Source: a virus (Duplodnaviria; Caudoviricetes). Taken from it: a DNA stretch of 27,368 bases. The notes under the pieces were generated by a model. The model did no database searches and was not told where the DNA came from. It saw nothing but the letters and a program-made list of their open reading frames with translations. The stretch lies in IMG/VR virus record IMGVR_UViG_3300033067_000654, positions 1-27,368 of that record. The stretch is one strand, 5' to 3'. Made by a program: the position numbers and the translations under genes. Shown here in pieces: positions 1,137 through 17,471 of this stretch. Position 1 is the stretch's first letter; each line of letters starts with the position of its first letter.

Positions 1137-1143
1137 ATGTTAT

Positions 1144-3342: not shown

Positions 3343-3711
3343 TTACTTTGATCCAAATACTTCTGTTATTGCTTTGATCATGCTGTCTTGCTCAGCTGAA
3401 CTAAGAGTATCTAGTCCATCTGTACTGACTGTAAATGAGTTGTTACCTTTTCGATTTTTTATGTTAGTAAAAAGATCAGTAAAGTTTGCAGCTTGACCCA
3501 CAAATTCTTGATCAACATAGGCATAATAACATCCATTTACTTTTTCCACAAACAGTTTGCCTATGTTTGATGCCGGTTTGTTCTCGGAAGTATTCTCGTC
3601 TTCGGCTTCTTTGAGTAGTTCTTTGACTATAGAATTTGCCATACTAACTTTGCCAAAGAAATAGCAAGCAGCACCAAAAAGCCCAATTAAAATAAGGTCA
3701 GCGATAGTCAT
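3343..3711 (-). CDS. Hypothetical protein with N-terminal membrane anchor
   Basis: Hydrophobic N-terminus LILIGLFGAACYFFG; ATGA overlap. Confidence 0.75.
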   Translation of the reverse strand: MTIADLILIGLFGAACYFFGKVSMANSIVKELLKEAEDENTSENKPASNIGKLFVEKVNGCYYAYVDQEFVGQAANFTDLFTNIKNRKGNNSFTVSTDGLDTLSSAEQDSMIKAITEVFGSK

Positions 3712-4043
3712 GTATTCTTGCTTTCTTCTGTTACTAAAATCTTCATTAGTTGAAACTGCTCGTAAGCAGCTTTGAGTCCGGGATGCTTTTCCATTAGTGC
3801 ATGTAGTTGTTCTTGTTCGGCACGTTGCTGACTAGCCCACCTAATAGCAGCCTCGGCTTCTCCGCTAAGACCTATTGTACTTTGCATAGAAATATTTAAC
3901 CAAGTGTTGCCGTCATACACTTCAAAGGTATCATTTCGGTACCGAACCATACCGGCATTGTATGCACCGGGACTAATATACGGCCCACCACCTCCGCCGT
4001 ATACGGTAATATACGGGCTACTGCTAGTTACAGAGTTTATCAT
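3708..4043 (-). CDS. Hypothetical protein
   Basis: 111-aa ORF with GMVRY..FEVYDGNTW and a helical C-terminus; ATGA overlaps on both sides. Confidence 0.75.
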   Translation of the reverse strand: MINSVTSSSPYITVYGGGGGPYISPGAYNAGMVRYRNDTFEVYDGNTWLNISMQSTIGLSGEAEAAIRWASQQRAEQEQLHALMEKHPGLKAAYEQFQLMKILVTEESKNT

Positions 4044-4569: not shown

Positions 4570-4598
4570 ATTCTAGCACAAGTTTGTCTAACAGTCAA
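4570..4598 (-). promoter_or_regulatory. sigma70-type promoter
   Basis: TTGACT-N17-TAGAAT with an extended TG. Confidence 0.65.
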
Positions 4599-4777
4599 TG
4601 CACTCCGGACCATTTTAAACTAAAAACAGTGGCGTGTTCTAAATCATCGAATTTAAAATTGAGTCCTTGCCCCGGCCAGTTTGTTGTCATGGCCCATTTT
4701 GTAATTGGTAAATGATCTAAACACCAGTTACATGCAGCACCGGCCGTTCGGGAATCAGAAACGTGGATTGTAATCAT
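4595..4777 (-). CDS. LRW-family small protein
   Basis: WC..H; C-terminus FKFDDLEHATVFSLKWS. Confidence 0.75.
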   Translation of the reverse strand: MITIHVSDSRTAGAACNWCLDHLPITKWAMTTNWPGQGLNFKFDDLEHATVFSLKWSGVH

Positions 4778-5582
4778 TTAGTATATCATCTGTTGTGGGA
4801 GGGGTGATGTGGTTTTGTAATAGATATCTAGCTTCCTGATCACGATTCGATCTACTAGACTCTCCCATAATAACTACAGAATATTGCTGACCCTGTTGCT
4901 CAACTAACATGGCTAGACACTTGCCTGCACTAGTTGTTGTTCCGGTTTTACTAACAACAATGTTGTCAAATTCGTCTAGGATTGCTTTGTTTGTATTGTT
5001 GATACTAATCGCCCGGGCTCGTTTGCTGTTAGAATTAATTTCTACCACAGGCTGGCTGCTTGAGTGCCTAATGTCTGGGTACTGTCCAGCGGCTATTAGC
5101 ATTTTAGCAACATCGCTGGCAGTTGCTGAATTGTCGTTATTTAGGCCCGATGGGTCTTTGAATTGTGCGCTTAACATGCCCAAGCTAAAAGCCTTGTCAT
5201 TCATGGCTTGAATAAAGGCTGCACGATTACTGTGAAAGTTTTTGCTCAGTACCTCTGCTACATAATTGTCGCTTCTAACTAGCAGCAAGTTTAATAGTTC
5301 TTTTACAGTGTATTCACGCTTGCCCATATATGGCGTCGGTAATTTAATAACCTTGAGTGGATTGGTTGTTTGATCCAATACCACCATTGCAGTCATTAAT
5401 TTAGTAATGCTAGCGATGCTGCGTACACGATCCGGATTCTTTTCGTATACAACACGGTTTACAGAAGTGTTTAATACAATAACGCTGTGTTCGGTTACCG
5501 GAGGTTTAACTTTGCGTGGCTTTCCCCCGGCGTGTACGTTAGTGCATAATAGTGCAATGGCGATAATGGCTGCAAATTTCAT
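4755..5582 (-). CDS. D-alanyl-D-alanine endo/carboxypeptidase, peptidase S11 (PBP7/PbpG-like)
   Basis: Signal peptide; SxxK (ASITKLMT), SxN (SDN) and KTG motifs; DPSGL. Confidence 0.9.
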   Translation of the reverse strand: MKFAAIIAIALLCTNVHAGGKPRKVKPPVTEHSVIVLNTSVNRVVYEKNPDRVRSIASITKLMTAMVVLDQTTNPLKVIKLPTPYMGKREYTVKELLNLLLVRSDNYVAEVLSKNFHSNRAAFIQAMNDKAFSLGMLSAQFKDPSGLNNDNSATASDVAKMLIAAGQYPDIRHSSSQPVVEINSNSKRARAISINNTNKAILDEFDNIVVSKTGTTTSAGKCLAMLVEQQGQQYSVVIMGESSRSNRDQEARYLLQNHITPPTTDDILNDYNPRF

Positions 5583-5812
5583 AGATAGGTCATCCTAAAC
5601 ATTGTTGCAGCTTCATCGCTATAGAAATCGAGGAAAATAGTTTCCCGGTATCCTGTTTCGTTAGACCACACACGATGTTTCCGAACAGTGAACCCCAGTT
5701 CTTCCTTCATCTTGGAACGAATAAGAATAATGGATGGCTTGTGTTCATAACGTTTGGCCAGCTTATTATATACAGCCACCCATTCGGCATCGGTCAACGC
5801 AATAGGTTTCAA
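5579..5812 (-). CDS. LRW-family small protein (divergent)
   Basis: C-terminus LDFYSDEAATMFRMTYL. Confidence 0.7.
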   Translation of the reverse strand: MKPIALTDAEWVAVYNKLAKRYEHKPSIILIRSKMKEELGFTVRKHRVWSNETGYRETIFLDFYSDEAATMFRMTYL

Positions 5813-6297
5813 ATGTCACCTTCATAGCCCGGTGGCATGATCAGCCCGGAATCTAGCACTACCCCATTAATAGTATGGGGCTCGCTTTCATCATAAGTCC
5901 AGCCTAACACTTTCATCATTTTGTGCTTGACTAACAGGTTAGGACTGCGAAATGCCTCGCAATCACTAAACCCCATCATTACACCAACTTCGCAAACTGC
6001 GCCACTGCGACAAACCCCAGCAACACAATGAACTACAACATTCATTCTATTTAGTTGGGCATGTTGCAACAATTCAACTAGGCTTTGTGCTTGCTGATCG
6101 CTGATTTTTACGTCCTCGGGGGCATCGTCATCTCGTTCAAGATCCAGAAACTTAAACTGGTGCGTCTCTTTAAACTTGTGCATGGGCACAGGAAACTCCA
6201 TGTCTGGGTCAACGATCTGAATCAGCATAGAATTTTCGCCAGCATTATGATGCCGGCCCTTGGGAATATCTCCCAGAGATACGTTTTCAATCCACAT
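5809..6297 (-). CDS. Cys-based protein tyrosine / dual-specificity phosphatase-like protein
   Basis: VHCVAGVCRS (HCx5R P-loop) with an upstream F.D motif. Confidence 0.85.
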   Translation of the reverse strand: MWIENVSLGDIPKGRHHNAGENSMLIQIVDPDMEFPVPMHKFKETHQFKFLDLERDDDAPEDVKISDQQAQSLVELLQHAQLNRMNVVVHCVAGVCRSGAVCEVGVMMGFSDCEAFRSPNLLVKHKMMKVLGWTYDESEPHTINGVVLDSGLIMPPGYEGDI

Positions 6298-6309
6298 AAT
6301 TTACCTTGG

Positions 6310-6528
6310 TTAGAGCCATTTCAATCTGAATAGTATAACATCTTTTTCGTCACTGAACAAGTATGCTGCAATTTCGTCCCACAGGTAGCTAACATCTTGC
6401 ACATCTTGCACATGGTATCCTGCATAACTTTGGCAATGCTCCCGAGCCCAACGATCAATTTCGGCAAAGTACTTGTGATTGAGCCCGTATCCACCGCCCT
6501 TTTCGTCGTTGACTAGAACTTCAATCAT
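6310..6528 (-). CDS. LRW-family small protein
   Basis: C-terminus FSDEKDVILFRLKWL; TAATG-coupled start. Confidence 0.75.
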   Translation of the reverse strand: MIEVLVNDEKGGGYGLNHKYFAEIDRWAREHCQSYAGYHVQDVQDVSYLWDEIAAYLFSDEKDVILFRLKWL

Positions 6529-6764
6529 TACCAAACCCACTTACATATAAACATGCTAGCATCTGCTTCGCTCTCAAATGCAAATTCCCTTGTTTGATAG
6601 CTATTGACACAGCCACAAAACACATGCCGCGACACCCATATAATAATACCTAGCCAGCTAACGTTATGCTTTTCTAGAGTATTGGCAGGCAATGTAACAA
6701 CATGCCAGCCCTTCCTGCGAGCTCCGCGCACGGAACGAGGGTCAGTTCTTTTGTGCTGTCTCAT
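6528..6764 (-). CDS. LRW-family small protein
   Basis: C-terminus FAFESEADASMFICKWVW; ATGA-coupled start at 6764. Confidence 0.75.
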   Translation of the reverse strand: MRQHKRTDPRSVRGARRKGWHVVTLPANTLEKHNVSWLGIIIWVSRHVFCGCVNSYQTREFAFESEADASMFICKWVW

Positions 6765-6982
6765 GATTTTAGCGTAAAGATTAGAAACAAATCTTTCAAT
6801 GGGTGATTCCACGGGTCCTGAACGCCATATGCAATATATCCAAACCTAACATCCATGTCGATGTAGTCAATGCCTTTAGTCTTGAGCTTGCCATTGATAG
6901 AAGTTAACTCGGTTCCGTCTGGAAGTTGGTTGTACTCTTCGCGAGTAAACAGATACAGCCCATCTTCATTCCAAAGTTGCAT
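6761..6982 (-). CDS. Hypothetical protein (weak LRW-like tail)
   Basis: TAATG-coupled start; ends DLFLIFTLKS. Confidence 0.7.
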   Translation of the reverse strand: MQLWNEDGLYLFTREEYNQLPDGTELTSINGKLKTKGIDYIDMDVRFGYIAYGVQDPWNHPLKDLFLIFTLKS

Positions 6983-7230
6983 TATAACCACCTCAAGGTA
7001 AAGTACACAGCGTCAACTTCTCGCTCAAAATAAATGAATTCGTCCATGATACTCATGTAAAACTTGCCCGGGCTATCGTGCAACTGTAATGTTCTTTTGG
7101 TTTTGTTAAACTTATCCCGACTATACCATCCTTCAAAATAAGGAGTCAGTGCAGTTTTAAATGGTTCCTTGGGCAAACAAATCGAAAACCACTTTGCTCG
7201 TAGATGTTTTTGTTTGTTCCAGTACTTCAT
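6982..7230 (-). CDS. LRW-family small protein
   Basis: C-terminus YFEREVDAVYFTLRWL. Confidence 0.78.
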   Translation of the reverse strand: MKYWNKQKHLRAKWFSICLPKEPFKTALTPYFEGWYSRDKFNKTKRTLQLHDSPGKFYMSIMDEFIYFEREVDAVYFTLRWL

Positions 7231-7496
7231 GCCCACTTGATTGCAAACATAGTTGAATCTTCTTCCCTGCGGAATACAAATACAAGATTGTATGTAATGT
7301 TGTCGTCCCAGACATCCTCGTCTAGCTCGACATTCTCGTCTGGCTGTGGAACGTCCTCGTAATAAAACCAGTCATCAACGCCCATCCAAGTATTGACGCG
7401 GAACCTACGTGTGCCACGCCCGACATTTTGTCGCAACCAGTCTTCGACCTCATCTAAGTTATCACGGTGTTTATTGTTGAGTAAAATACTATTCAT
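7227..7496 (-). CDS. LRW-family small protein
   Basis: WLRQNVG; C-terminus FVFRREEDSTMFAIKWA. Confidence 0.78.
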   Translation of the reverse strand: MNSILLNNKHRDNLDEVEDWLRQNVGRGTRRFRVNTWMGVDDWFYYEDVPQPDENVELDEDVWDDNITYNLVFVFRREEDSTMFAIKWA

Positions 7497-7731
7497 TGGT
7501 TGTTCCAAACTTCAATGCAAACATTATAGCAGGTTCTTCCCACTCAAATTGCACAATGTCATAATTTTTTTGATAAAGATCTGCCCATTCTACATGCCAC
7601 CGGCGAAAGTAGCGGTCCTGTGCATCATATTGCGTACACCATTCGTACATTTCAGTAGTGCATTTTGGAACTTTAATCCTATAACTAAATCTTGGTCGGT
7701 TATTGCCGCCACCGCCGTGAAAGTATTCCAT
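7489..7731 (-). CDS. LRW-family small protein
   Basis: EWC; C-terminus VQFEWEEPAIMFALKFG. Confidence 0.75.
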   Translation of the reverse strand: MEYFHGGGGNNRPRFSYRIKVPKCTTEMYEWCTQYDAQDRYFRRWHVEWADLYQKNYDIVQFEWEEPAIMFALKFGTTNE

Positions 7732-8000
7732 TACCCTATCCTCTCTTCGAGTAAGGACCAGTCATTGGAGGAAACTCTCATCATAAACATAGTCTCTTGC
7801 TCTAGTGTTTCTGTAGTTATAATCAGACTTGTACTTACAATATATTGTTCACCCTTTCCGTACACTGAGAAAGGTGAAAGATTATTCTTTATTTTGAGAT
7901 CATATCCGCTGGAGGCAAACCACAGTGCATCTTGTAACGATAGCTGCCCGGGGCCGACGTATTGCCAAGTCTTGATTACACGGTCTTTAACGTATTCCAT
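7731..8000 (-). CDS. LRW-like small protein (divergent)
   Basis: ETLEQETMFMMRV near the C-terminus. Confidence 0.65.
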   Translation of the reverse strand: MEYVKDRVIKTWQYVGPGQLSLQDALWFASSGYDLKIKNNLSPFSVYGKGEQYIVSTSLIITTETLEQETMFMMRVSSNDWSLLEERIG

Positions 8001-8437
8001 ATGCCCAGTTGTTCTTTAAGAATTTTATTCTCGTCTTGTGCTTTTTCTGCGGCCTTTACAGCATCTCTAGTCAGCGACTCTGCGGTACGTATTGCAGACT
8101 TTGCTTCCGATAAAATGTCGACAACACTACGAATTTTTAATCGTTTGACTTCTTCTCTTAACTCTTGAACTTCACGCTGTGAAACTACCAATTCATCCTC
8201 GAGCCAATCTGTGTTGCTTTCTAGGTGTTGGATATACTCAGCGGGGGAATAGTCTTGGTAGTCTACAGTAAAGATATTAGTGGCGGGATCCATTCCGATT
8301 TCTACTAGCTCCCCAACTATTCCTCCACGAATGCCAATGAGCATATTAACCAATCGCAACACAATAGGATCTGAGCTAGTTAGATCTAGATAATTTAATA
8401 GTTCAAGATCAGTTAAATGATTTAAATTCTTATTCAT
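7976..8437 (-). CDS. Coiled-coil hypothetical protein
   Basis: Heptad-rich C-terminal half; ATGA-coupled start. Confidence 0.75.
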   Translation of the reverse strand: MNKNLNHLTDLELLNYLDLTSSDPIVLRLVNMLIGIRGGIVGELVEIGMDPATNIFTVDYQDYSPAEYIQHLESNTDWLEDELVVSQREVQELREEVKRLKIRSVVDILSEAKSAIRTAESLTRDAVKAAEKAQDENKILKEQLGIWNTLKTV

Positions 8438-8661
8438 GCCCACCTCAGCAAAAAGGCTGTATACATTTTTTCATCGGGAAATTCTACCCACATTCCGATG
8501 TCGTCGCGCAAATTGTTGATGTTGAATCTTTTAAAAGCGCTGTATTCATGCTCTAGCATTTCCCAAATACTCATGCCTTTATTATAAGTATCTTGACCGT
8601 CAAGCGTGTCCCAATACCATGTAGCAAGTTTCCGCCATTGCGGTTGAATGTTAACGATCAT
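8434..8661 (-). CDS. LRW-family small protein
   Basis: C-terminus VEFPDEKMYTAFLLRWA. Confidence 0.78.
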   Translation of the reverse strand: MIVNIQPQWRKLATWYWDTLDGQDTYNKGMSIWEMLEHEYSAFKRFNINNLRDDIGMWVEFPDEKMYTAFLLRWA

Positions 8662-8882
8662 ATGCCTTTTAGTAATATCAAACTCATCAATTTTTCATGC
8701 ACCCAGTATCGGGCACGATGATAAGCTCCGTGTACTTTCCATAGTTCGTTATCGTGTTGCTCAATCCAATCTCCAAACTGGTATCGACAATCTAGTAGAT
8801 ACCAGTCAACTCCGTGCTCGTCTTTGCGAACATTGCATTGAACATCTTGTGGATACTCCCAACCTTTTTTAACTGTGCTCAT
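8658..8882 (-). CDS. LRW-like small protein (divergent)
   Basis: WIEQH…W; ends YWVHEKLMSLILLKGI. Confidence 0.65.
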   Translation of the reverse strand: MSTVKKGWEYPQDVQCNVRKDEHGVDWYLLDCRYQFGDWIEQHDNELWKVHGAYHRARYWVHEKLMSLILLKGI

Positions 8883-9201
8883 AACCATTTGTTAAGGCCT
8901 TAACTAATTCGTATCGTTTAACAGCTTCTTGAACTTCGTCCCAGGCTGCTGCTAGTGCAGGTGTGTTTTTAGATTCTCGACGATCTTCATACCATTCCCA
9001 CGGGTTGGCATCACACCAGTAAACCACAGCGGCTCTGTGACTGTGAGTAGCAACACTTTCGCGCCACCCTGTGTTGGTTCCAGCAAAGTAACTGGTACCT
9101 ATGCCGCCTTCATCCGCAAGTGTGGGCCCAACAAAAGTCAGATAGGTGCCGCACTGCTCGGGCAGTTTTTCGTTTGTGTTATACCAGAAGGTTGTTTTCA
9201 T
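8869..9201 (-). CDS. Hypothetical phage protein (W….EKLPE..G.YL N-terminus, DUF551-like)
   Basis: Motif recognised by eye. Confidence 0.7.
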   Translation of the reverse strand: MKTTFWYNTNEKLPEQCGTYLTFVGPTLADEGGIGTSYFAGTNTGWRESVATHSHRAAVVYWCDANPWEWYEDRRESKNTPALAAAWDEVQEAVKRYELVKALTNGYEHS

Positions 9202-9205
9202 AATA

Positions 9206-9457
9206 TTACGACCACCGTAACATAAACACTGTTAAGTCTTGCTCGTCTCTAAACCAAAATTTGCTGTTGTTTGTATACCATCGAGCCCCTGGAGTCCAAA
9301 TACCATCTTGTGGTTGCGTTCCAAATGTTTTGTTGCACCAATCCATTACATCCCGCCAGGTGGTTGCAGTATCAGAAAACGAGTACTCGTTGAAAATAAG
9401 TTTAACAGTATAATACCGTTTTCCGCTTATTCGCCCCTCGTTTAGTCCTAACTCCAT
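9206..9457 (-). CDS. LRW-family small protein
   Basis: WCNKTFG…RW; C-terminus FWFRDEQDLTVFMLRWS. Confidence 0.8.
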   Translation of the reverse strand: MELGLNEGRISGKRYYTVKLIFNEYSFSDTATTWRDVMDWCNKTFGTQPQDGIWTPGARWYTNNSKFWFRDEQDLTVFMLRWS

Positions 9458-9681
9458 TTTAGTAAAAATAGCGATAAATCTTCGCGTTTGTCAAACAACA
9501 CTTCGCCGTGATCGATATAATCCTTCCACCTGATTTGTGCAGTAAGATGATTGTAGCCCGGCGGCCCGTATACATTGTAACACCATTTTCTAATTTCCGC
9601 AACGGCATCTTTGCTGGTGCTAAATGCAGCTACAGCATGCCCTTGATCCCAATATTCGTCATATGTATGGATAAACATCAC
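9448..9681 (-). CDS. LRW-family small protein
   Basis: WCYNVYG…RW; C-terminus FDKREDLSLFLLKWS. Confidence 0.8.
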   Translation of the reverse strand: MMFIHTYDEYWDQGHAVAAFSTSKDAVAEIRKWCYNVYGPPGYNHLTAQIRWKDYIDHGEVLFDKREDLSLFLLKWS

Positions 9682-9878
9682 GAATACCTTAAAACAAACA
9701 GTGTGTACAAATATTCATCATGCCACTTGACATTCAGCTTATAGTATTTGCTCTTGCTCTTGCCGAGTGTGCCTTTATATTCCTTCAATCGTTCTTCAAT
9801 AACATCTTCGCCGTTATGACTGAGAATGAAGTTATTGAAATAGCCGGTCTGAGACCTTTCGTATTGTTTCTTTATCAT
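9678..9878 (-). CDS. LRW-family small protein
   Basis: C-terminus VKWHDEYLYTLFVLRYS. Confidence 0.75.
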   Translation of the reverse strand: MIKKQYERSQTGYFNNFILSHNGEDVIEERLKEYKGTLGKSKSKYYKLNVKWHDEYLYTLFVLRYS

Positions 9879-10054
9879 AGCCAAATCAAGTTAAACCAAA
9901 TTGCATCTTTTTCTTCCACTAAGAAAAAAATATCATCTAACCCAATTTGCCATAAACTCCAATTGGTCATATCTACGTAGTCCTTGCAATTTGCTTGTAT
10001 CCAACTGCATTGCTCATGCCAAGTGATAGGGCAACTAATAGTAATCTTAGTCAA
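9875..10054 (-). CDS. LRW-family small protein
   Basis: WIQANC; C-terminus FLVEEKDAIWFNLIWL; TTGA-coupled TTG start. Confidence 0.72.
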   Translation of the reverse strand: MTKITISCPITWHEQCSWIQANCKDYVDMTNWSLWQIGLDDIFFLVEEKDAIWFNLIWL

Positions 10055-10470
10055 GACCACCTCAGCATAAACATTATAAATTCTTGCTCGTCCTTAAAAG
10101 CTACAAATATGTAATCCCCGCCGCCAAGATCATTTAATTCCCATTGGTTTGCAGTAGCTGGGCATCTTATTGCACGGAAAAAGTCCATGCGGTACTTTTC
10201 TTTGCAATTGGTCTCGCACCATTTGTCTACTATATAGGTGCCGACCATGCCCAGGTCCCAATAATATACCTCGTGATTGCGATTTTCGAATACGTAGACA
10301 TAGGGATACCCATGATAAAACTCTTTAATTCGTGTAGCACGCCAATTAACATCAGGGTCAAACCGATGGTTATATTGACGCCAATTTTCACAGTGATGTT
10401 TTTTGAGAAAACGACGATCCTGCCAAGCTTTATAGCGTTCGCGAATTTTTGATATTAAATTGATAGCCAT
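10051..10470 (-). CDS. LRW-family protein with N-terminal extension
   Basis: WCETNC; C-terminus AFKDEQEFIMFMLRWS; likely start MAIN at 10470. Confidence 0.8.
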   Translation of the reverse strand: MAINLISKIRERYKAWQDRRFLKKHHCENWRQYNHRFDPDVNWRATRIKEFYHGYPYVYVFENRNHEVYYWDLGMVGTYIVDKWCETNCKEKYRMDFFRAIRCPATANQWELNDLGGGDYIFVAFKDEQEFIMFMLRWS

Positions 10471-10700
10471 TTTAATGCAAACACCGCACGGTGCTCTGGA
10501 TCCCTGATACGCCAAATGTCAACATTAAACAAATATGAAGTTAGTTTGCTATCGCTAGTGTTAAGAGCAGACTCTGCTGCGATGTTCATTTCCCTACACC
10601 AGTTGACTACTTCACGTCGATACTTATTCGGCACCATGATATCGCGTTCATCACTAGTGAGTTTTAAGTTGCCGTGTTCTGCAAATATTTTTGTAGACAT
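10455..10700 (-). CDS. LRW-family small protein
   Basis: NWCRE; C-terminus IRDPEHRAVFALKWL. Confidence 0.78.
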   Translation of the reverse strand: MSTKIFAEHGNLKLTSDERDIMVPNKYRREVVNWCREMNIAAESALNTSDSKLTSYLFNVDIWRIRDPEHRAVFALKWLSI

Positions 10701-11014
10701 TACGTATCACTCAATATGTCAAATAATGTAGCGTATTGTATTTCTGGCTCCATGTGAAAACCTGTGCCCCACACTACCCAGACTCGCCTCTTGTAGACTG
10801 TTTCCCACCAGACTTTTTTACCAGCGACTGTCTTACGAGGCCACCAAGCAAATGCTTTACGCCAGGGGTAACAGCCTGCGCCATCTTCAATGATGGTTAT
10901 TTCCATGTACTTATTTCCGGGTGCAGGATTAAAATTCATTGCGCCATTAAAACTCATTCGTGCCTTGTTGTATCGGATATTGTCGCCTATGCTTCTACCC
11001 CAGAGAATCTTCAT
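10700..11014 (-). CDS. Trp-rich hypothetical protein, related to 18222..18425
   Basis: W…FAW.P……VW..T.Y.R…EI.Y.T.FD.L pattern shared with 18222..18425. Confidence 0.75.
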   Translation of the reverse strand: MKILWGRSIGDNIRYNKARMSFNGAMNFNPAPGNKYMEITIIEDGAGCYPWRKAFAWWPRKTVAGKKVWWETVYKRRVWVVWGTGFHMEPEIQYATLFDILSDT

Positions 11015-11226
11015 TTAGACCCAGCAAAATAGTCCCAAGGTTTACCGCCAAGTGTTTCCCAGTTTTCGTATTTTTGGGCTTCTTCCTTGCAGCTCTGCGG
11101 TTGTCCAATAGATCCAACTACTGCCATGCAGTCTTCACATCGGTAAGAAATGCCCGAACCTTCATCAAAGTATGCTGTGCCGCCACAAGGTAGCTGCATT
11201 GGGGGAAATATATCTTGTGTTTTCAT
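11011..11226 (-). CDS. Small putative zinc-ribbon protein
   Basis: PCGG…YRCEDC…C. Confidence 0.72.
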   Translation of the reverse strand: MKTQDIFPPMQLPCGGTAYFDEGSGISYRCEDCMAVVGSIGQPQSCKEEAQKYENWETLGGKPWDYFAGSK

Positions 11227-11423
11227 GTCCACTTTAATGTATACAATAGGATATTGTGCGATTCTCGGATAATCATCATATGGCTAACAGCATTATACTC
11301 CCAGGGCCCGCAGAATTCGCGGTGTCCAAATGTTTTTTCACACCACATAATTCGATCTTGTACTTGGCTCCAGCCCTCCATTCCCCGGGGCAGATTAAAA
11401 ACTTGTACGTCTACTTTATCCAT
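11223..11423 (-). CDS. LRW-family small protein
   Basis: WCEKTFG…W; ends LLYTLKWT. Confidence 0.78.
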   Translation of the reverse strand: MDKVDVQVFNLPRGMEGWSQVQDRIMWCEKTFGHREFCGPWEYNAVSHMMIIRESHNILLYTLKWT

Positions 11424-11638
11424 TTTAGTGTGAACCACATTTGTTGCTGCTCAGTTTCAAACCACCATTGGTATTGCTGCTCTTCATACTGCCGCCCAGG
11501 TCCAGCCCAGAATACACACCATGAGCCGCTACGATTTCCTATTGCTTCCCATCTTGTGCCCCATTGCTCTACACACCAACGTTCGGCATTGTGTAGTATT
11601 TTTCTAGTAGTTTGCACACCATATGGTAACTGCTTCAT
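11411..11638 (-). CDS. LRW-family small protein
   Basis: WCVEQWG; C-terminus WFETEQQQMWFTLKW. Confidence 0.78.
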   Translation of the reverse strand: MKQLPYGVQTTRKILHNAERWCVEQWGTRWEAIGNRSGSWCVFWAGPGRQYEEQQYQWWFETEQQQMWFTLKWIK

Positions 11639-11880
11639 TGCCACCTCATCACAAACCAGTTAAGTTTCTTTTCATCTGTAAAGAAATATTTGTTGCGCAT
11701 ACGCTTCCAACCAGTGACAGGTTCCTCGCCCCACAAGTCACCTTTACCAAATACCTCTTCGCACCAGGTGTCAATGTTAGGATACCAATCTTGTCCCCAG
11801 AAGTTCATTTCAGGACGCCATGGTGGCTCATCTAACTCGGCGGTATAATATCCCGCATTGTATTCTGTTTGAATGATCAT
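11635..11880 (-). CDS. LRW-family small protein
   Basis: WCEEVFG; C-terminus YFFTDEKKLNWFVMRWQ. Confidence 0.8.
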   Translation of the reverse strand: MIIQTEYNAGYYTAELDEPPWRPEMNFWGQDWYPNIDTWCEEVFGKGDLWGEEPVTGWKRMRNKYFFTDEKKLNWFVMRWQ

Positions 11881-12128
11881 GACCACTTCAATACAAACAA
11901 AGTGTATTTGGCATCATTGTTAAATGTTACTACAAATCTGTAGTCATTGTCCTTGCACTTAAAAGTTGCATCCATCTGCGCAAGCTCTTCTCGCATTAAG
12001 GACTGTACTACTCCGGGCCCAGCAATCTTCCCGCCGATTCGCCTATTCCATAAGTCGGCATACCACTTTTCAAAGTAGTCTCTGGGCTTGTGAACATTGA
12101 TATTCTGATAATACTCTTTAACTATCAT
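11877..12128 (-). CDS. LRW-family small protein
   Basis: C-terminus VTFNNDAKYTLFVLKWS. Confidence 0.78.
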   Translation of the reverse strand: MIVKEYYQNINVHKPRDYFEKWYADLWNRRIGGKIAGPGVVQSLMREELAQMDATFKCKDNDYRFVVTFNNDAKYTLFVLKWS

Positions 12129-12514
12129 GTGCCCCACCTTAGCATATACCATTCGTAGTCTATAGCATCACGGAAGTTAATATACCCTAAACCAACATAC
12201 CAACGTGACCATGCATCCTGCTTCACGGGATGTGCGCCAAACTGTTCAGTACACCATGCAATAGCTTGATTGTATTCATCAGACAAGCGCCATACTGAAT
12301 CACTATTGAGTTTAACAGTATACCACTTGGCACGACTGAACTTATACTTTGATTCTGGCGGAGACGGAAACATGATTTCCTTGCAGAGATTGGTATCGTG
12401 GATACGACTCTTGAGAGCCGTGTAGTAAAGACTTTTACCAGTTTGGCGACCTCCAGAGAATATCATCATTTCTCCGGGAGAAATACCTTCAGTGACGTTT
12501 CGCATAATATTCAT
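12125..12514 (-). CDS. LRW-family protein fused to an N-terminal Walker-A-like fragment
   Basis: GISPGEMMIFSGGRQTGKS, then WCTEQFG…RW…FRDAIDYEWYMLRWG. Confidence 0.78.
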   Translation of the reverse strand: MNIMRNVTEGISPGEMMIFSGGRQTGKSLYYTALKSRIHDTNLCKEIMFPSPPESKYKFSRAKWYTVKLNSDSVWRLSDEYNQAIAWCTEQFGAHPVKQDAWSRWYVGLGYINFRDAIDYEWYMLRWGT

Positions 12515-12723
12515 GTCCACCTCAGCATAATCATTGACATTATAGATTCATGTTTAACTCTAATAATACTCATTGCACTACCGTAGTAAGCAATAACCCA
12601 CAGCTTGTTTTCGTCATCGCCAAATGTATCCCGCATCCAGTTAAGAAATCCGTAGCCGATGACTGAAATCTCCCAAGAGTCGGGGTCACATGTGCGCTGT
12701 GTAACTTTGATGTTTATGTCCAT
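12511..12723 (-). CDS. LRW-family small protein
   Basis: WMRDTFG…W; ends HESIMSMIMLRWT. Confidence 0.75.
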   Translation of the reverse strand: MDINIKVTQRTCDPDSWEISVIGYGFLNWMRDTFGDDENKLWVIAYYGSAMSIIRVKHESIMSMIMLRWT

Positions 12724-12956
12724 TTTAGCACAAAGAATGTAAACTTTAGTTCGTCAATCACGTGATACCCTTTGACATTCGTAAAGTCCTCGGATAAAAC
12801 AAGCTGTAATCCACTGTCTTGCTCAAAGTAATAGAGTTTTGCATCCTGCTCTGCAATACCTGTGATAACTCGCGCTTCTGGGGGACAATACTTAATTGTA
12901 CTACCGACTTCGACTGCCCATTTGTTCATCGCAGATTTAATTGACGAACCAATCAT
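12714..12956 (-). CDS. LRW-family small protein
   Basis: Ends VIDELKFTFFVLKWT. Confidence 0.75.
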   Translation of the reverse strand: MIGSSIKSAMNKWAVEVGSTIKYCPPEARVITGIAEQDAKLYYFEQDSGLQLVLSEDFTNVKGYHVIDELKFTFFVLKWT

Positions 12957-13168
12957 GACCACCTCAGTGCAAACAACATTGCATCTTGCTCACTATACAA
13001 TATAAAGCTAGTCCGATTATGGAGATGTTCCAACCCCCATTGTCCCCTGGAAAAGTTTTTAGAACACCAAGATATTATATTAGCCACTTGCTCGGGATCG
13101 TTATTTAAACCGCAAGTGACAATACAGTGCCAGCAGTCAAAAATGCTTTTCTTAACAGTTAGTTCCAT
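12953..13168 (-). CDS. LRW-family small protein
   Basis: WCSKNF…W; ends YSEQDAMLFALRWS. Confidence 0.78.
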   Translation of the reverse strand: MELTVKKSIFDCWHCIVTCGLNNDPEQVANIISWCSKNFSRGQWGLEHLHNRTSFILYSEQDAMLFALRWS

Positions 13169-13368
13169 AACACACAAAAGAATGTAGCATCGTGAGACTC
13201 ACGGAATCGAAGGTGCGGTTTGCGTCCATATCCGTTGCCAACAATAGACCAGCGGGCAACACCCATTTCGAAATCTTGTCTAATGTTGTTACCTAGCCAA
13301 ATAGCCAACTCATCATAGGACACTGTACTGCCATCTAGTCGTTGTTTAGGAATAGGTATTTCTGTCAT
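13159..13368 (-). CDS. LRW-family small protein
   Basis: WLGNNI…RW; ends FRESHDATFFCVLWN. Confidence 0.75.
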   Translation of the reverse strand: MTEIPIPKQRLDGSTVSYDELAIWLGNNIRQDFEMGVARWSIVGNGYGRKPHLRFRESHDATFFCVLWN

Positions 13369-13661
13369 GACCACTTTAGCACAAAGAATGTTAGATCTGC
13401 GTGTGTTTTGAACTTGATATATCGCTCATCCCACTTCTTAGTTATTTTGTAGGTTGCATTAAAATTGGCCAGCTGGCGTACAAAGTTTTCGTCGTATCCC
13501 AAATTCCAATCCGCTGTATCTTTTACGTGCCGGAGAAATTTAGCCCAATACGGTTCAAACACGGCACGTTCATCTAATTGTCCATATTGGTCAAAATACC
13601 GCTCATACCTAATTACAAGGTCTTTGAGTTTGATTATGCAATCATCGGGTCTGATAGCCAT
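13365..13661 (-). CDS. LRW-family small protein
   Basis: Ends IKFKTHADLTFFVLKWS. Confidence 0.78.
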   Translation of the reverse strand: MAIRPDDCIIKLKDLVIRYERYFDQYGQLDERAVFEPYWAKFLRHVKDTADWNLGYDENFVRQLANFNATYKITKKWDERYIKFKTHADLTFFVLKWS

Positions 13662-13664
13662 ACG

Positions 13665-13982
13665 TTACGCACAGAGTAAAGCCCAAACCGCAGTCTTTTC
13701 AAGATCATCTTGAAATTCGGGGTACACGCTATTCAGTTCATCAAGTTCAACTGACTTGTATCCACTATGTAATTTCTTTTCAAACATTTCGATAGCGTCC
13801 CGAGTGCTGCTTTCGAACAGTTTGGTTTGCAGCTTTTTGCCGCGGCGTCCCCAAAACGACACATACTGATTTTTAGTGTAACCAAAATCATTTGTATCAT
13901 TGTTACGTAACAGGATAATGCCCCAAACTTTGTCAGAGTTTTCTTCTTCGTTGCGATACCAACCAATGTGTTTATATTCCAT
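13665..13982 (-). CDS. WGR-domain-like protein
   Basis: SDKVW…FWGRRG…Q…KK…GY pattern of WGR domains; TAATG-coupled start. Confidence 0.75.
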   Translation of the reverse strand: MEYKHIGWYRNEEENSDKVWGIILLRNNDTNDFGYTKNQYVSFWGRRGKKLQTKLFESSTRDAIEMFEKKLHSGYKSVELDELNSVYPEFQDDLEKTAVWALLCA

Positions 13983-14275
13983 TATGCCCACCTTAGAGTT
14001 GCAATAAGTTTGAGTTCGTCTAGATTGCCTATGGCGTTATTATATACAATAATAACAAAGTGATCAATAGTTCCTGCTTTAGACGTTAAACTCCAGCCAT
14101 ACTGCCCGGTATTTGCTATACACCACGAGCTAACTTCGCTATAGTCTCGGGAGTTCGTTTCGATCCTAAATACTTCTTTTCGACGTGCCCGATCGATATA
14201 GGCCATAGAAGATTCAATTTTGAAGGTTGCCCTTGGTCTCTTTAAGAGCGCACTAATGTCTGCCACATTACCCAT
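13982..14275 (-). CDS. LRW-family small protein
   Basis: WCIANTG..GW; ends IATLRWA. Confidence 0.72.
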   Translation of the reverse strand: MGNVADISALLKRPRATFKIESSMAYIDRARRKEVFRIETNSRDYSEVSSWCIANTGQYGWSLTSKAGTIDHFVIIVYNNAIGNLDELKLIATLRWA

Positions 14276-14520
14276 TTTTCAAAATCCTCTGCATCGTCGC
14301 TGTCCTCAAATTGAACAGCTTGATTGGGACTCCAGCTAGGAGTTGTATAAAATGCTGCACGACAGTTCTCTTCGCACCATATTCTGATTCGAAGCATGTT
14401 GGAATTGAATTCGCAAAATGAATCAAAGAAGTCATTGCGATTATGCCACGGAACACTAACCCAGTGTAGTTTGGGTACTTTTACGTCTAGTCCCGGCCAC
14501 GGTGTAGTGTACGTTATCAT
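14242..14520 (-). CDS. LRW-like small protein, probably translated from a leaderless mRNA
   Basis: WCEENC; VQFEDSDDAEDFEKW; ATG lies 7 nt after the -10 box. Confidence 0.72.
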   Translation of the reverse strand: MITYTTPWPGLDVKVPKLHWVSVPWHNRNDFFDSFCEFNSNMLRIRIWCEENCRAAFYTTPSWSPNQAVQFEDSDDAEDFEKWVMWQTLVRS

Positions 14521-14527
14521 ATGCTAT

Positions 14528-14556
14528 ATTATAGCAAGAAACGGACATCAAGTCAA
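14528..14556 (-). promoter_or_regulatory. sigma70-type promoter
   Basis: TTGACT-N17-TATAAT with an extended TG. Confidence 0.75.
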
Positions 14557-14762
14557 TCCAAATTCCAACGTAAAAGAAACATAGTCACTGCTGCTTCGTT
14601 ACGCAATTTCCAGCCATTGTAACTTTCTCGGTAACCTAATTCGTGCTGCTGTACCCAGTGGCTGATTTCTACTAAGTCGGCATCTGTTGGGGAACCTACG
14701 TCACGTTCCCAAACTTCTACATAGCGCGGCCTAGTGGTAAATGTTTTAACAAAGTAACTCAT
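14553..14762 (-). CDS. LRW-family small protein
   Basis: Start MSYF (ATGA overlap); ends RNEAAVTMFLLRWNLD. Confidence 0.75.
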   Translation of the reverse strand: MSYFVKTFTTRPRYVEVWERDVGSPTDADLVEISHWVQQHELGYRESYNGWKLRNEAAVTMFLLRWNLD

Positions 14763-14992
14763 GCCCAGCGGATAGCAAACAGAGTTAGGGTTTCGGCTGT
14801 GGGTATGTTTACTGTCATTCCTTGCATAGTGCAGCCGTTTTCTAAACACCAATTGACGAATTCGTCAACATGGTCAGACCAAAATTTAAGATCAGTTAAC
14901 AGTATCATATAATCGGTATCTGAGCCGTCGGGCATAAGCAATGGCGGCACCACCATAAACTTGTCAGTATGCCAATCTCCGATATTGCTCAC
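14759..14992 (-). CDS. LRW-family small protein
   Basis: WCLENG; ends LTLFAIRWA; GTGA-coupled GTG start. Confidence 0.75.
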   Translation of the reverse strand: MSNIGDWHTDKFMVVPPLLMPDGSDTDYMILLTDLKFWSDHVDEFVNWCLENGCTMQGMTVNIPTAETLTLFAIRWA

Positions 14993-15237
14993 ATCCACCT
15001 CATAACAAACCACAGGTAATCGGGTTGATGCTTAAATGAAAACGTAGTGTAACCAAACATTGAGTGTATAGTCCAATTGGGTAACACAGTCCAGTCTTTG
15101 GGGTACTGCTCCCCAATCCATTTACCGGTCCCAAATTGACAGTCGCACCAATGAGACATTTCTGTTTGTTGATGATATCGATCTTTTCCGTATGTTACTG
15201 CATATTTTTTCGAAAGATCGCAAAGATCAGTGGCCAT
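14989..15237 (-). CDS. LRW-family small protein
   Basis: WCDCQFG…W; ends FSFKHQPDYLWFVMRWM. Confidence 0.78.
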   Translation of the reverse strand: MATDLCDLSKKYAVTYGKDRYHQQTEMSHWCDCQFGTGKWIGEQYPKDWTVLPNWTIHSMFGYTTFSFKHQPDYLWFVMRWM

Positions 15238-15496
15238 ATTTTAAATGAAAGTATGTTGCGTCCTGCTCTGAAAACTGTGCGATGATGCGTACATGATATC
15301 CATATGAGGTGGTGTTAAATCCAGTTAGCCATTGTGGTTCGGGACAACTATGTTCCATTACCCATTTGCCTGCCTCAGTTTGTTGCCACTCGTAAATAGG
15401 CTGAGCTGCATAAATTGCAGGATCTTCTACGTCACCTAACGTAAACGCATGAACAAGAACCTTTGTCATGCCCGATTGTAGCACAGTTTTGTTCAT
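15227..15496 (-). CDS. LRW-like small protein
   Basis: GDVEDP..YAA.P..EW…G.WVM; ends FSEQDATYFHLKYG. Confidence 0.75.
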   Translation of the reverse strand: MNKTVLQSGMTKVLVHAFTLGDVEDPAIYAAQPIYEWQQTEAGKWVMEHSCPEPQWLTGFNTTSYGYHVRIIAQFSEQDATYFHLKYGH

Positions 15497-15948
15497 TTGT
15501 CAAACTCAGTTTTCTTAAGGGTGTCCCACACTACCATTTTTTCTTTAATATCTGCCTCAAGCTTGCGATATTGGTCACCTAGCTGTTTGAGTTCTTCCCA
15601 CTCTTTTTCTATTTCGAGATTGGGCTGCAATATAGCCAATCGCTCTTCGATGGCCTCGATAGCTTTGCACAAACTTTTACCATTGACTTTGATGTCTGCG
15701 CCCTCGCCATTGACACTTAACGAGGTGTCATTACTCCAGGTATTTTGTCCAACGGCTCCGATGCCCCATGTTGTTCCCGGGGTACCGATAGTCCAGTTAG
15801 TGTTAGTTCCGGTAGTTAGTATAGACCCCATTGCCCAATTGGTAGGATCAATGGTGTATGTAGAACCAGTAGCCCCGACTGTGTATTTGTATTCGTGAGT
15901 AGAATAATCGTCGATTGTTAGGTTAGTATCTTTTGAATTGTCTGACAT
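15493..15948 (-). CDS. Hypothetical protein (Thr/Gly-rich N-half, coiled-coil C-half), probably leaderless
   Basis: Start MSDN at 15948, 6 nt after the -10 box. Confidence 0.75.
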   Translation of the reverse strand: MSDNSKDTNLTIDDYSTHEYKYTVGATGSTYTIDPTNWAMGSILTTGTNTNWTIGTPGTTWGIGAVGQNTWSNDTSLSVNGEGADIKVNGKSLCKAIEAIEERLAILQPNLEIEKEWEELKQLGDQYRKLEADIKEKMVVWDTLKKTEFDK

Positions 15949-15954: not shown

Positions 15955-15983
15955 AGTATAAAGTTTTACAAGTGACTTGTCAA
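15955..15983 (-). promoter_or_regulatory. sigma70-type promoter
   Basis: TTGACA-N17-TATACT. Confidence 0.75.
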
Positions 15984-16024: not shown

Positions 16025-16633
16025 ATGCGAGAAGTTAAATCAATCCCCGGATATTGCTACCCAATATCATATCAAGTTGACTACGACCGGCTATACAGTA
16101 GTATAAACACATTGTTATCTCGATTGGGGCTTAGTATGGCGGACATCAACAAACGTTGTTTAACTGAGTTTGCCCACACAATTAACCTCACACATCAGCT
16201 GGGACTCACTGGCGACGATCGTTGGAAAAAGTATGCCGGTGGACATCGCGCTGTTGCAAGACAAGGTGCGCATGAAGTTGATTTTGTCCAGCATTTAGAC
16301 GAAATTAAGGATCTGTATCTAGGGCAAGTGTTACGGGATGTATATGATCAACATCCTGGATTATTCCAAGGTAGGGCACAGCTAATTTGGTTAGGTGCCA
16401 AACAAAGATATGATATGCACCGCGATCCGCATACTCCTAATAGGTACCACATACCGATTATCACAAACACGTTATGCTATTGGGTATTGGCAGAGCCTAA
16501 TAAAGAACCAGTTAAACTGCATATGCCTGCAGATGGCAGAGTTTGGTATCTAAATCCAGTTGCACTTGAGCACACCTTCATTAATGATTCTAACGTGCCT
16601 AGACTGCATATACTTTTAACTAGTGGATTGTAA
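16025..16633 (+). CDS. 2OG-Fe(II) oxygenase, aspartyl/asparaginyl beta-hydroxylase-like
   Basis: HRD…RYHIPIITN…H…N….R.H (HxD…H facial triad); preceded by CTAAATA. Confidence 0.8.
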   Translation: MREVKSIPGYCYPISYQVDYDRLYSSINTLLSRLGLSMADINKRCLTEFAHTINLTHQLGLTGDDRWKKYAGGHRAVARQGAHEVDFVQHLDEIKDLYLGQVLRDVYDQHPGLFQGRAQLIWLGAKQRYDMHRDPHTPNRYHIPIITNTLCYWVLAEPNKEPVKLHMPADGRVWYLNPVALEHTFINDSNVPRLHILLTSGL

Positions 16634-16639: not shown

Positions 16640-16669
16640 AAAAAGCCCGCCGAAGCGGGCTTTTATTTT
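16640..16669. terminator. Bidirectional intrinsic terminator
   Basis: AAAAAGCCCGC-CGAA-GCGGGCTTTTATTTT between the convergent oxygenase gene and tRNA operon. Confidence 0.88.
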
Positions 16670-16743
16670 GGTACCTGGACACGGTTTCGAACCGCGGACC
16701 CTCTCGGTGTAAACGAGACGCTCTCCCCCTGAGCTATCCAGGC
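16669..16743 (-). tRNA. tRNA-Val(TAC)
   Basis: GCCTGGATAGCTCAG…CTCG-TTTACAC-CGAG…GGTTCGAAACC…TCCAGGTACCA. Confidence 0.93.
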
Positions 16744-16763
16744 AATGTAAATTGTAGTAAGTC

Positions 16764-16821
16764 TGGTGCTGATATCCAAACATAGCCGGGATACACCGGG
16801 GAGCATAACGCTCAGATCAGC
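16764..16821 (-). ncRNA. 58-nt tRNA-like mini-RNA ending in ACCA
   Basis: GCTGAT/ATCAGC acceptor-like stem plus ACCA, with internal GAGC/GCTC and CCGG/CCGG hairpins and no TTCRA T-loop. Confidence 0.45.
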
Positions 16822-16843
16822 AATACGTATCTCTACAAAAATC

Positions 16844-16917
16844 TGGAGCGGGTACCGAGAATCGAACTCGGGCTCTAACCTTGGCAAGGTCACAGGCTAC
16901 CATTACATCATACCCGC
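16844..16917 (-). tRNA. tRNA-Gly(GCC)
   Basis: GCGGGTA…ACC-TTGCCAA-GGT…GTTCGATTC…TACCCGCTCCA. Confidence 0.92.
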
Positions 16918-16964
16918 TTACATATACTATTTATTATACTCCGTATGTCAGGGAGTATTTTATT

Positions 16965-17041
16965 TGGTGCGGATGGAGAGACTCGAACTCTCAGCTTACG
17001 GCTTCTAAGACCGCTGCGTTTACCAATTTCGCCACACCCGC
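16965..17041 (-). tRNA. tRNA-Leu(TAG) with a short variable loop
   Basis: GCGGGTGTGGCGAAATTGGTAAACGC…GCGGT-CTTAGAA-GCCGT-AAGCT-GAGAGTTCGAGTCTCTC…ACCA; 77 nt. Confidence 0.9.
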
Positions 17042-17050
17042 GTGTGTTAA

Positions 17051-17112
17051 CAGGTTAATACTAGTTTAATGACCTAGCAGTCGCCATATGTATATATCGC
17101 TGTAATTAACCT
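17051..17112 (-). ncRNA. Possible structured RNA in the tRNA spacer
   Basis: 8-bp closing stem AGGTTAAT/ATTAACCT enclosing CAG…CTG and CTAG/CTAG hairpins. Confidence 0.3.
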
Positions 17113-17117
17113 AAATC

Positions 17118-17191
17118 TGGATGCGGGTACAAGATTCGAACTTGTGATGCTCCGAGCTTATGAGACTGGAGTGGTGGCCGCCCTACCCGCT
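17118..17191 (-). tRNA. tRNA-Met(CAT), initiator-like, with atypical D and anticodon arms
   Basis: AGCGGGT…CTCATAA loop…ACAAGTTCGAATCTTGT-ACCCGCATCCA; 1:72 mismatch. Confidence 0.75.
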
Positions 17192-17197
17192 GTATTC

Positions 17198-17383
17198 TTA
17201 TTTAACCTTTAGCAAATACTCCGTACCAATTTTACCTTGCTCGATTTCTGCAATAGCAGTCATCACTTCTTTAGTCTTAGTTGCAATTAGCGGACGATGC
17301 CCACGTTTCAACTCACGAACTCTAGCAGATGCTGCTAACACAATATCGTATCGGTTTGTTAGCGGTTCTTTTTTAAAAGCCAT
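17198..17383 (-). CDS. rpoZ: RNA polymerase omega subunit homolog
   Basis: NRYDIVLAASARVREL..G..PL…K….AI.EI..GKIG aligns with omega NRFDLVL.AA.RARQ…ALREIEEG; AAGGA SD. Confidence 0.85.
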   Translation of the reverse strand: MAFKKEPLTNRYDIVLAASARVRELKRGHRPLIATKTKEVMTAIAEIEQGKIGTEYLLKVK

Positions 17384-17396
17384 GTAAATCCTTGTT

Positions 17397-17471
17397 TGGT
17401 CCGGCGTAAAGGAATCGAACCTTTATTAATAGCTTAGAAGGCTACTGTTCTATCCATTGAACTAACGCCAG
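17397..17471 (-). tRNA. tRNA-Arg(TCT)
   Basis: CTGGCGTTAGTTCAATGGATAGAAC…TAGC-CTTCTAA-GCTA…GGTTCGATTCC…ACGCCGGACCA. Confidence 0.93.

Follow-up and report, generated by a model that had tools for sequence, protein, structure and literature searches.

A shuffled array of small paralogous phage genes, some bearing look-alikes of core phage proteins, and its possible role against host sensors

An uncatalogued gene family in tandem

The window analyzed here is the whole 27,368-base stretch taken from IMG/VR virus record IMGVR_UViG_3300033067_000654 (class Caudoviricetes), and about 40% of it is filled by a tandem array of small paralogous genes on the minus strand (positions 4595-15496). The array and the family to which its genes belong are a real, uncatalogued, and widespread system, unusual in two points of its design, for which a function is proposed from sequence: with a probability of roughly 0.45, the array encodes a set of swappable decoys or binders that are aimed at host anti-phage sensors and made as free (nonvirion) proteins from host-type promoters. 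A preliminary description of the window had pointed to the co-oriented array, and our analysis bears it out, resolving 40 genes into 29 firm members, 3 borderline members, and 8 nonmembers.

Firm members were defined by a score of at least 10 bits on an iterated family profile, a level reached by 1 of 17,259 reversed control open reading frames (ORFs); the borderline genes, named like all others by their lower coordinate, are 12714 (9.9 bits), 8658 (8.2 bits), and 7731 (6.3 bits). Since the iterated profile was seeded with window members, leave-one-out profiles provide the independent test, with the top scores reached by 990 shuffled sequences (9.4 bits) and by 213 other window ORFs (6.8 bits) as the levels to beat. 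Of 33 candidates, 27 exceeded both. The candidates that did not were 13982, 12714, 8658, 7731, 5579, and 6761, the last of which was rejected as a member (0.0 bits; phrog_34791) despite its similar-looking tail. Members are 59 to 139 amino acids (aa) long, with 30 of the 32 in the range of 59-100 aa, and have net charges from -10 to +6. Paralogues share a median identity of 19% and a maximum of 35% (496 pairs). The C-terminal pattern proposed earlier holds in a relaxed form (22/32 members), whereas the literal F-x-L-[RK]-W terminus is present in only 14 members and the W-C motif in only 15.

Family size, distribution, and fold

When 1.84 billion representatives clustered at 50% identity were searched with a profile built from 31 window members, 2,436 proteins matched at E ≤ 0.001, making this one of the larger uncatalogued phage protein families. 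As the preliminary description had supposed, no named family could be assigned: no member scored above the Pfam cut-off or under E 0.01 in PHROGs, PADLOC gave one weak match among 31 and NCBIfam 1 among 110, and a sequence search of the PDB returned only Skp1 at E 0.01, without a passing stretch. In the ESM Atlas, the closest clusters consist of viral proteins annotated as hypothetical, and a word-based homologue search retrieved only 10 proteins. The 9206 member had no close relative in 185,579 prokaryote genomes, in a search that detects close relatives only, and tblastn of single members against cultured phages gave no match apart from one weak one. Profile matches were nonetheless obtained in the cultured phages Phosso (39), Atu_ph07 (4), and PA5oct (3), where the proteins are listed only as uncharacterized or hypothetical; there was none in Vibrio 2.275.O, JNE01, RsoM2USA, or T4. 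A complete relative, G007, encodes at least 25 members, 21 of them within one array. The 150 best profile hits included a helicase of 1,176 aa (P0052), which was treated as a false positive and left out of all counts. Five other hits (P0017, P0028, P0065, P0078, and P0095) contain two matched stretches or two visible domain copies, as expected from fusion of neighboring cassettes.

The small alpha/beta domain anticipated earlier is supported by structure predictions. AlphaFold2 modeled the 12953 member (110-row alignment) as beta-beta-alpha-beta-beta-alpha with a predicted local distance difference test (pLDDT) score of 84.9. Its structural neighbors are uncharacterized proteins of uncultured Caudovirales phages in BFVD (template modeling [TM] score up to 0.71 by query), but there is no clear PDB match: the best Foldseek hit had E 0.067 and TM 0.47, and VIA structure comparison gave a best Z of 6.7 (root-mean-square deviation 2.4, 63 aligned) and another of 5.2, with no PDB fold above background among those considered, including LAGLIDADG, ACT, and eIF1-like folds. 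The divergent 5579 member is predicted as beta-alpha-alpha-alpha-beta-beta-alpha (pLDDT 94.9) and is linked to the family by an hhalign probability of 89.5, only over the last 25 C-terminal columns, and by some BFVD neighbors in common with the 12953 model, at weak E-values. A fold common to all members was therefore borne out in part, for the C-terminal helix-strand-strand-helix order but not for the N-terminal half of the 5579 member; judged from these models, the common part of the family is the C-terminal core. Homodimer prediction for the 12953 member scored 0.00, an outcome uninformative either way.

A protein tail that doubles as a ribosome-binding site

The genes of the array are tightly coupled, as had been claimed, with 35 of 39 junctions overlapping and 18 of them by 4 nucleotides (nt), counting each start as the codon nearest the upstream stop, a choice that favors apparent coupling. 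The terminal L-R-W-x-stop is mostly encoded by (G)AGG-TGG, which matches a Shine-Dalgarno sequence and is followed by the next ATG after 8 or 11 nt. In loci fetched regardless of codons, the arginine codon is AGG in 24 of 35 tails versus 1 of 31 other Arg-Trp pairs (p 2e-8); the corresponding values are 91 of 139 versus 4 of 87 in loci fetched by pattern, with seed genes removed, and 9 of 12 versus 1 of 8 within the window. Where the tail arginine codon ends in A, it forms with the following tryptophan codon an ATG that often opens the next ORF. As read from its codons, the L-R-W tail doubles as the ribosome-binding site of the next gene, and its conservation is probably due in part to this overlap. 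Phosso retains the tail as protein with other codons, and the copies inspected there mostly have no AGG-TGG ribosome-binding site, which suggests that the tail is constrained at both the protein and the ribosome-binding-site levels. If each gene carries the start signal of its successor, the cassettes would be interchangeable, and a tail that specifies a folded helix and at the same time the ribosome-binding site of the following gene would offer a neat account of array growth and reshuffling.

The earlier statement that long DNA repeats are absent needs the addition that short ones exist, namely, a 39-nt junction family of 10 copies with 62-77% identity to the reference; this similarity may guide recombination. 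Host-type promoters had also been proposed. A general scan found no excess (26 sites versus 30.6 by chance), yet three sense-strand sites match sigma-70-type promoters at 11 of 12 bases, where 0.3 are expected and none of 200 shuffles reaches 3. These promoter-like sites, all on the minus strand, stand at the head of the array (15955-15983 and 15475-15503, the latter with an extended -10) and at the head of an inner block (14528-14556, extended -10). As an ATG lies only 5-7 nt past the -10 box at each of the three, leaderless transcripts are predicted. Together with a site at 24184-24177, this makes four strong promoter-like sites in the window with such spacing (the other three at 15955-15948, 15475-15469, and 14528-14520), whereas others have a leader with a ribosome-binding site. 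Terminators show no excess (9 versus 9.5 expected). According to the accessible text of the paper, as for all literature cited here, PA5oct, a distant carrier of the family, is dependent on host RNA polymerase and has sigma-70-type promoters (PMC7318152).

Array content changes by gain and loss of conserved genes

Array content proved variable among related phages. The related locus L001 has the same flanking genes in the same order and 7 members. The window's block of 26 members (14520 to 6310), served by a promoter of its own, is replaced there by a single member, and copy numbers differ four-fold between arrays. Orthologues at 41-72% identity exist in the fetched loci for 22 of the 32 window members, yet 28 neighbor pairs differ from those of the window and only 6 agree, all at the flanks. 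The N-termini, previously called hypervariable, are not: purifying selection acts on every part of the protein, with a ratio of nonsynonymous to synonymous substitution rates (dN/dS) of 0.157 over 157 independent homologous pairs of 60-95% identity, 0.20 for the N-terminal parts, and 0.11-0.22 for all parts. None of 111 measurable pairs exceeded 1, with synonymous sites near saturation. From these comparisons, the repertoire is a shuffled set of old, separately conserved genes changed by gain and loss rather than a hypervariable one.

Comparable kinds of system are known, namely, paralogue families expanded in jumbo phages (PMC7824862) and cassettes shuffled among T4-type phages (PMC2839356). 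The zinc ribbon of Bacillus phage G, a lineage-specific paralogue expansion of a jumbo phage, has about 35 copies (PMC7824862) and resembles the array in comprising dozens of copies of one small domain of unproven function; the 29-32 paralogues here, at least 25 in G007, and 39 in Phosso are likewise a lineage-specific expansion. The array differs in its domain, which has no zinc ligands, in its tandem, overlapping, and self-coupling arrangement, and in the core-protein pieces on some members; the accessible text of PMC7824862 does not mention the family. The PeSL cassettes of T4-type hyperplastic regions are intergenic promoter and stem-loop elements between unrelated genes (PMC2839356). They share with the array nonessential small genes that are gained, lost, and shuffled behind sigma-70-type promoters, as well as border repeats, and the differing neighbor pairs and the 7-member L001 array show the same module turnover. 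In contrast, the repeat here is the coding 3' end of paralogues and carries a ribosome-binding site, and intergenic promoter and stem-loop terminator repeats are not seen, the junctions mostly overlapping and terminators showing no excess. The family copies inspected in Phosso are more dispersed than those in the window. We found no literature description of the family, of the ribosome-binding-site tail, or of carrier-borne trigger pieces or decoys, in a search that left most subscription papers outside, and the accessible part of an anti-defense database preprint (10.1101/2025.06.06.658234) contains no such class.

N-terminal parts that resemble core phage proteins

Some family members carry N-terminal pieces, here called cargo, that resemble core phage proteins. 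Three of 62 scanned top profile hits pass the Pfam cut-off for the major capsid protein Gp23 through their N-termini, in agreement with PHROGs. At a threshold of 26 bits or more, comparison of 468 N-terminal parts with 12 core proteins of three relatives yielded 18 matches to capsid, 5 to the ribonucleotide reductase NrdA, and 2 to helicase, with none from shuffled sequences. An unbiased donor test of 621 N-terminal parts against all 294 ORFs of at least 120 aa in G007 gave, at 23 bits or more, 27 matches to the major capsid protein (0 shuffled), 8 to NrdA (0), 4 to helicase (0.6), and 4 to a tail-fiber-like ORF (0); at 28 bits or more, there were 24 real matches, against 0.6 from shuffled and 0 from reversed sequences. 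Of 23,850 six-frame ORFs in loci chosen near members, 14 short ones had at least 29 bits to capsid or helicase, and all of these were family members. D-I-E and Q-motif pieces were near chance (8 versus 1.8 and 5 versus 0.9, respectively) and were not counted.

The capsid pieces fall in two places, corresponding to T4 gp23 residues about 75-131 and about 252-312. By sequence alignment, the first spans the Gol region, the exact residues of which we take to be 94-122. Gol comprises 29 residues from the first quarter of gp23, within the most conserved region of the protein; it binds EF-Tu and is an activator of Lit (PMC3014915). A homologue of this region, 35-50 residues long, is present in relatives of gene 12125-12514, including orthologues in L082 and L083; the region is known from its interplay with EF-Tu and the e14 Lit protease (PMC3014915, PMC9712102, PMC8829019). 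Gol itself is a part of the capsid protein and acts as a trigger, whereas the piece here is detached and fused to a carrier. No Gol piece is present in the window's own members.

In the window, gene 12125-12514 (minus strand; 37.3 bits; 72% identical to its L081 orthologue) carries two pieces. Cargo 1 (residues 10-29; 12428-12487) is a helicase P-loop look-alike with a terminase-type R-Q-T-G-K-S, six residues identical in the G007 terminase; its best match among the 294 G007 ORFs is the helicase (27.3 bits, 2/300 shuffles). Cargo 2 (residues 38-53; 12356-12403) resembles the N-L-C-x-E-I loop of ribonucleotide reductase, a loop with a presumably catalytic role, and has NrdA as its best match (23.1 bits, 2/300 shuffles). 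ESM Atlas linked the window cargo to P-loop ATPase clusters at 0.77-0.82, under the bar, and this assignment was rejected. In other phages the same core is found without cargo, with a Gol-like piece, with only the reductase loop, or with a motif resembling polymerase B, and 23 of 44 related cores have a motif. Across the family, the pieces are of the capsid Gol region, the second capsid segment, the helicase/terminase P-loop, the ribonucleotide-reductase loop, and the polymerase motif, with P-loop pieces on 9 distinct cores and Gol-like pieces on 7. Members in two other loci (L301 1718-2075 and L272 1234-1591, minus-strand frame positions) bear a tail-fiber-like repeat piece, G-x-I-R-F-N ... 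E-x-Y-x-G-x-x-W, and a similar stretch occurs in the nonmember window gene 3708-4043.

A possible panel of decoys and its alternatives

If the array is a panel of decoys or binders, each gene would bring the start signal for any follower, so that cassettes could be inserted and reordered with expression kept. The conserved domain would serve as a stable carrier, its aromatic residues being likely structural, and the pieces would act as bait, occupying sensors of short core-protein motifs without firing them; members without recognizable cargo would use their own conserved N-terminal parts to bind other host targets. The core-protein look-alikes on some members lend indirect support to the anti-defense role suggested in the preliminary description. 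The documented immune triggers include capsid, helicase, polymerase, and terminase (PMC13581612, PMC11564622, PMC13601566, PMC9712102), Lit and CapRel sense short motifs (PMC13581612), and Upx has been modeled on unfolded terminase strands (PMC13601566). A nonvirion role is consistent with the three PA5oct members, which do not have the virion mass-spectrometry tag borne by their neighbors. Such decoys would point to new immune triggers and amount to a general principle of counter-defense. A more specific version, which we consider doubtful, is a peptide-display library, in which the phage's own essential proteins (capsid, terminase, helicase, reductase, polymerase, and tail fiber) would have their most conserved motifs captured by a self-coupling carrier and displayed as decoys. 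The captured pieces would then be a direct read-out of the short motifs that immune sensors watch, including ones not known as triggers, such as the reductase active-site loop.

Several observations weigh against a panel of decoys. Recognizable pieces occur in only 43 of 1,052 family clusters, counted with patterns written after the sequences had been seen, and in only 1 of 26 window N-terminal parts tested, and the two pieces of the window are short (27 and 23 bits). Small proteins can escape mass spectrometry, and only the 3 PA5oct genes inform the nonvirion claim. Rather than short motifs, it is entire folds that most Avs sensors enclose (PMC13581612), and a trigger piece could fire a sensor rather than block it. 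T4 vs.8, a stand-alone terminase-like ATPase, is toxic with Avs2 (PMC13601566); with Ksap1 and Ksap2, it belongs to the nonterminase Avs2 activators, small accessory proteins that, like the proposed decoys, resemble a core trigger and engage the sensor. The difference is that vs.8 is a whole ATPase-like domain that activates, whereas the pieces here are of 15-60 residues on an unrelated domain (PMC13601566). The term ribonucleotide reductase does not appear as a trigger in the accessible text of PMC13581612, the one source searched for it; the only PADLOC match among the members is the weak one (1/31); and orthologous pairs show, by dN/dS, no diversifying selection of the kind that an arms race might give.

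Host-takeover adaptors or regulators, whose shared domain would dock on one host machine (the ribosome, RNA polymerase, a protease, a chaperone, or EF-Tu) while the N-terminal parts bring clients, are an unlikely alternative. The capsid piece would then recruit EF-Tu or chaperones instead of blocking immunity, in keeping with the report that Gol also binds EF-Tu when Lit is absent, perhaps throughout the T4-like phages (PMC3014915). Also in favor of this reading are the window's genes for IF-1, a release-factor-like protein, RNA polymerase omega, five tRNAs, and RNA repair, the retention of the tail as protein in Phosso, where the ribosome-binding site is missing, and a likeness of the fold to ACT, eIF1, and other generic small alpha/beta domains (Z 5.7-6.7). 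These fold matches are, however, at background level, no partner was identified, the spread of net charge from -10 to +6 argues against a common nucleic-acid ligand, and pieces from several unrelated essential proteins are left unexplained. In a conflict between phages, members bearing pieces of capsid, terminase, helicase, or reductase would act as dominant-negative fragments that poison the assembly or replication of co-infecting relatives or tune the phage's own assembly. No motifs are better conserved across T4-like phages than those in the donor pieces: through its capsid piece, one cargo-bearing member matches 2,499 phage records. The second capsid piece, at T4 residues about 252-312, is found repeatedly as well. 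We nevertheless judge this quite unlikely, because the pieces would hit the phage's own near-identical motifs too, active-site-loop pieces of 15-50 residues would hardly fold or compete, and most members have no piece.

The array might, finally, be a by-product, with a stable mini-domain and its 3' ribosome-binding site spreading because it is expressed and harmless, and the pieces carried along as passengers when recombination or homing-endonuclease repair takes place at conserved motifs. Inteins and introns classically insert at P-loops and the reductase loop, three homing-endonuclease-like genes lie in the window, and the self-coupling tail, the junction repeats, and the four-fold copy-number differences would all be expected. 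The selection data make this explanation very improbable: dN/dS is 0.157 with 0 of 111 measurable pairs above 1, orthologues of 22 of the 32 window members persist at 41-72% identity elsewhere, and the window cargo is conserved in the orthologue (proportions of nonsynonymous and synonymous differences, pN 0.29 and pS 0.58, for the pair of 12125-12514). The restriction of strong pieces to the array's family (14/14 short ORFs) also speaks against passengers, and a panel of decoys or binders remains our preferred reading.

Gene content of the array

All genes of the array lie on the minus strand and are given here in the direction of transcription, with scores on the iterated profile. The first block opens with 15227-15496 (24.3 bits), the start of which is probably 15469, 5 nt after the -10 box and matched by the start of the L001 orthologue, so that a leaderless transcript is predicted; 14989-15237 (30.5), 14759-14992 (17.8), and 14553-14762 (27.1), the last of the block, follow. 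The inner block starts with 14242-14520 (16.1), also predicted to be leaderless (ATG 7 nt after the -10 box), and continues with the weak member 13982-14266 (13.0; leave-one-out 9.2), the WGR-like nonmember 13665-13982 (PF05406, E 0.0033, under cut-off), 13365-13661 (25.6), 13159-13368 (21.1), the modeled member 12953-13168 (38.9), the borderline 12714-12956, whose orthologues score 12.7-21.0, and 12511-12723 (19.1). Downstream of the cargo-bearing gene lie 11877-12128 (23.1), 11635-11880 (34.2), 11411-11638 (24.9), and 11223-11423 (21.7), and then two nonmembers: a four-cysteine protein, recognized from its sequence and assigned to no Pfam or PHROGs family (11011-11226), and a gene that travels with the arrays (10700-11014). 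The latter has 21 orthologues in the fetched loci, which adjoin LRW arrays, and a related ORF lies within the G007 array; together with 18222-18425 it forms a second small family (W-F-A-W-x-P ... Y-x-T-x-F-D-x-L).

The block proceeds with 10455-10700 (21.0), 10051-10470 (29.4), which has a long N-terminal part, 9875-10054 (26.2), 9678-9878 (14.9), 9448-9678 (32.2), and 9206-9457 (52.2), representing a widespread subfamily with 28 orthologues in the fetched loci. Next are the nonmember 8869-9201 (2.3), the borderline 8658-8882, 8434-8661 (24.1), and the coiled-coil-like nonmember 7976-8437; both nonmembers have relatives in L082 and L083. The doubtful member 7731-8000 precedes 7489-7731 (25.1), 7227-7496 (24.0), 6982-7230 (22.9), the nonmember 6761-6982 with its member-like tail, 6528-6764 (25.1), and 6310-6528 (32.7), which ends the inner block. 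In the conserved flank, a tyrosine/dual-specificity phosphatase-like gene (5809-6297; PF00782, PF00102; 83% identical in L001) and a D-Ala-D-Ala carboxypeptidase of the S11 type (4755-5582; PF00768, E 1.5e-37) alternate with the divergent member 5579-5812 (11.1) and the last member of the array, 4595-4777 (29.3).

Source and genomic setting of the window

Five metagenome runs, with no RNA dataset listed among them, hold at least half of the window's words, and near-identical DNA is riverine and freshwater. The array was recovered as near-identical contigs in 4 runs from 3 studies, which covered all 30 bins and bridged several genes per contig, although no single contig spans the whole array. 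Contig joints that skip parts of the array, which would bear on excised mini-circles, were short-sided, possibly from other phages, and were not used. The window contains no capsid gene. Phages reached through the neighboring peptidase gene or through the family have genomes of 333-345 kb (estimated or measured) and a T4 gp23-type capsid, their closest cultured capsid matches including Phosso, PA5oct-like phages, and Atu_ph07. From these relatives we infer that the window, whose own record is only 27 kb, derives from a jumbo phage of the gp23-type capsid group.

Host-like genes of the window encode a release-factor-like ORF with RF-1 and PCRF domains (26763-27323), RNA polymerase omega (17198-17383), IF-1 (1753-1974), and an Fe/Mn superoxide dismutase (1193-1753), and five tRNAs are located at 16669-17471. 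An RNA-repair-like cluster (19650-23942) includes a T4-type RNA ligase, an HD hydrolase, a phosphoesterase, and a polynucleotide-kinase-like AAA protein. The three homing-endonuclease-like genes (NUMOD3/HNH; 18909-19658, 21313-22092, and 26019-26792) are on the plus strand, and each overlaps or abuts the 3' end of a minus-strand gene. A plus-strand ORF of 202 aa (16025-16633), with no Pfam or PHROGs match, has H-x-D and H motifs, which we take to be suggestive of a 2-oxoglutarate/Fe oxygenase. Collagen-like G-x-x repeats at positions 1-1152 (minus strand) apparently mark the start of a tail-fiber gene, as in L001 (14361-17384).

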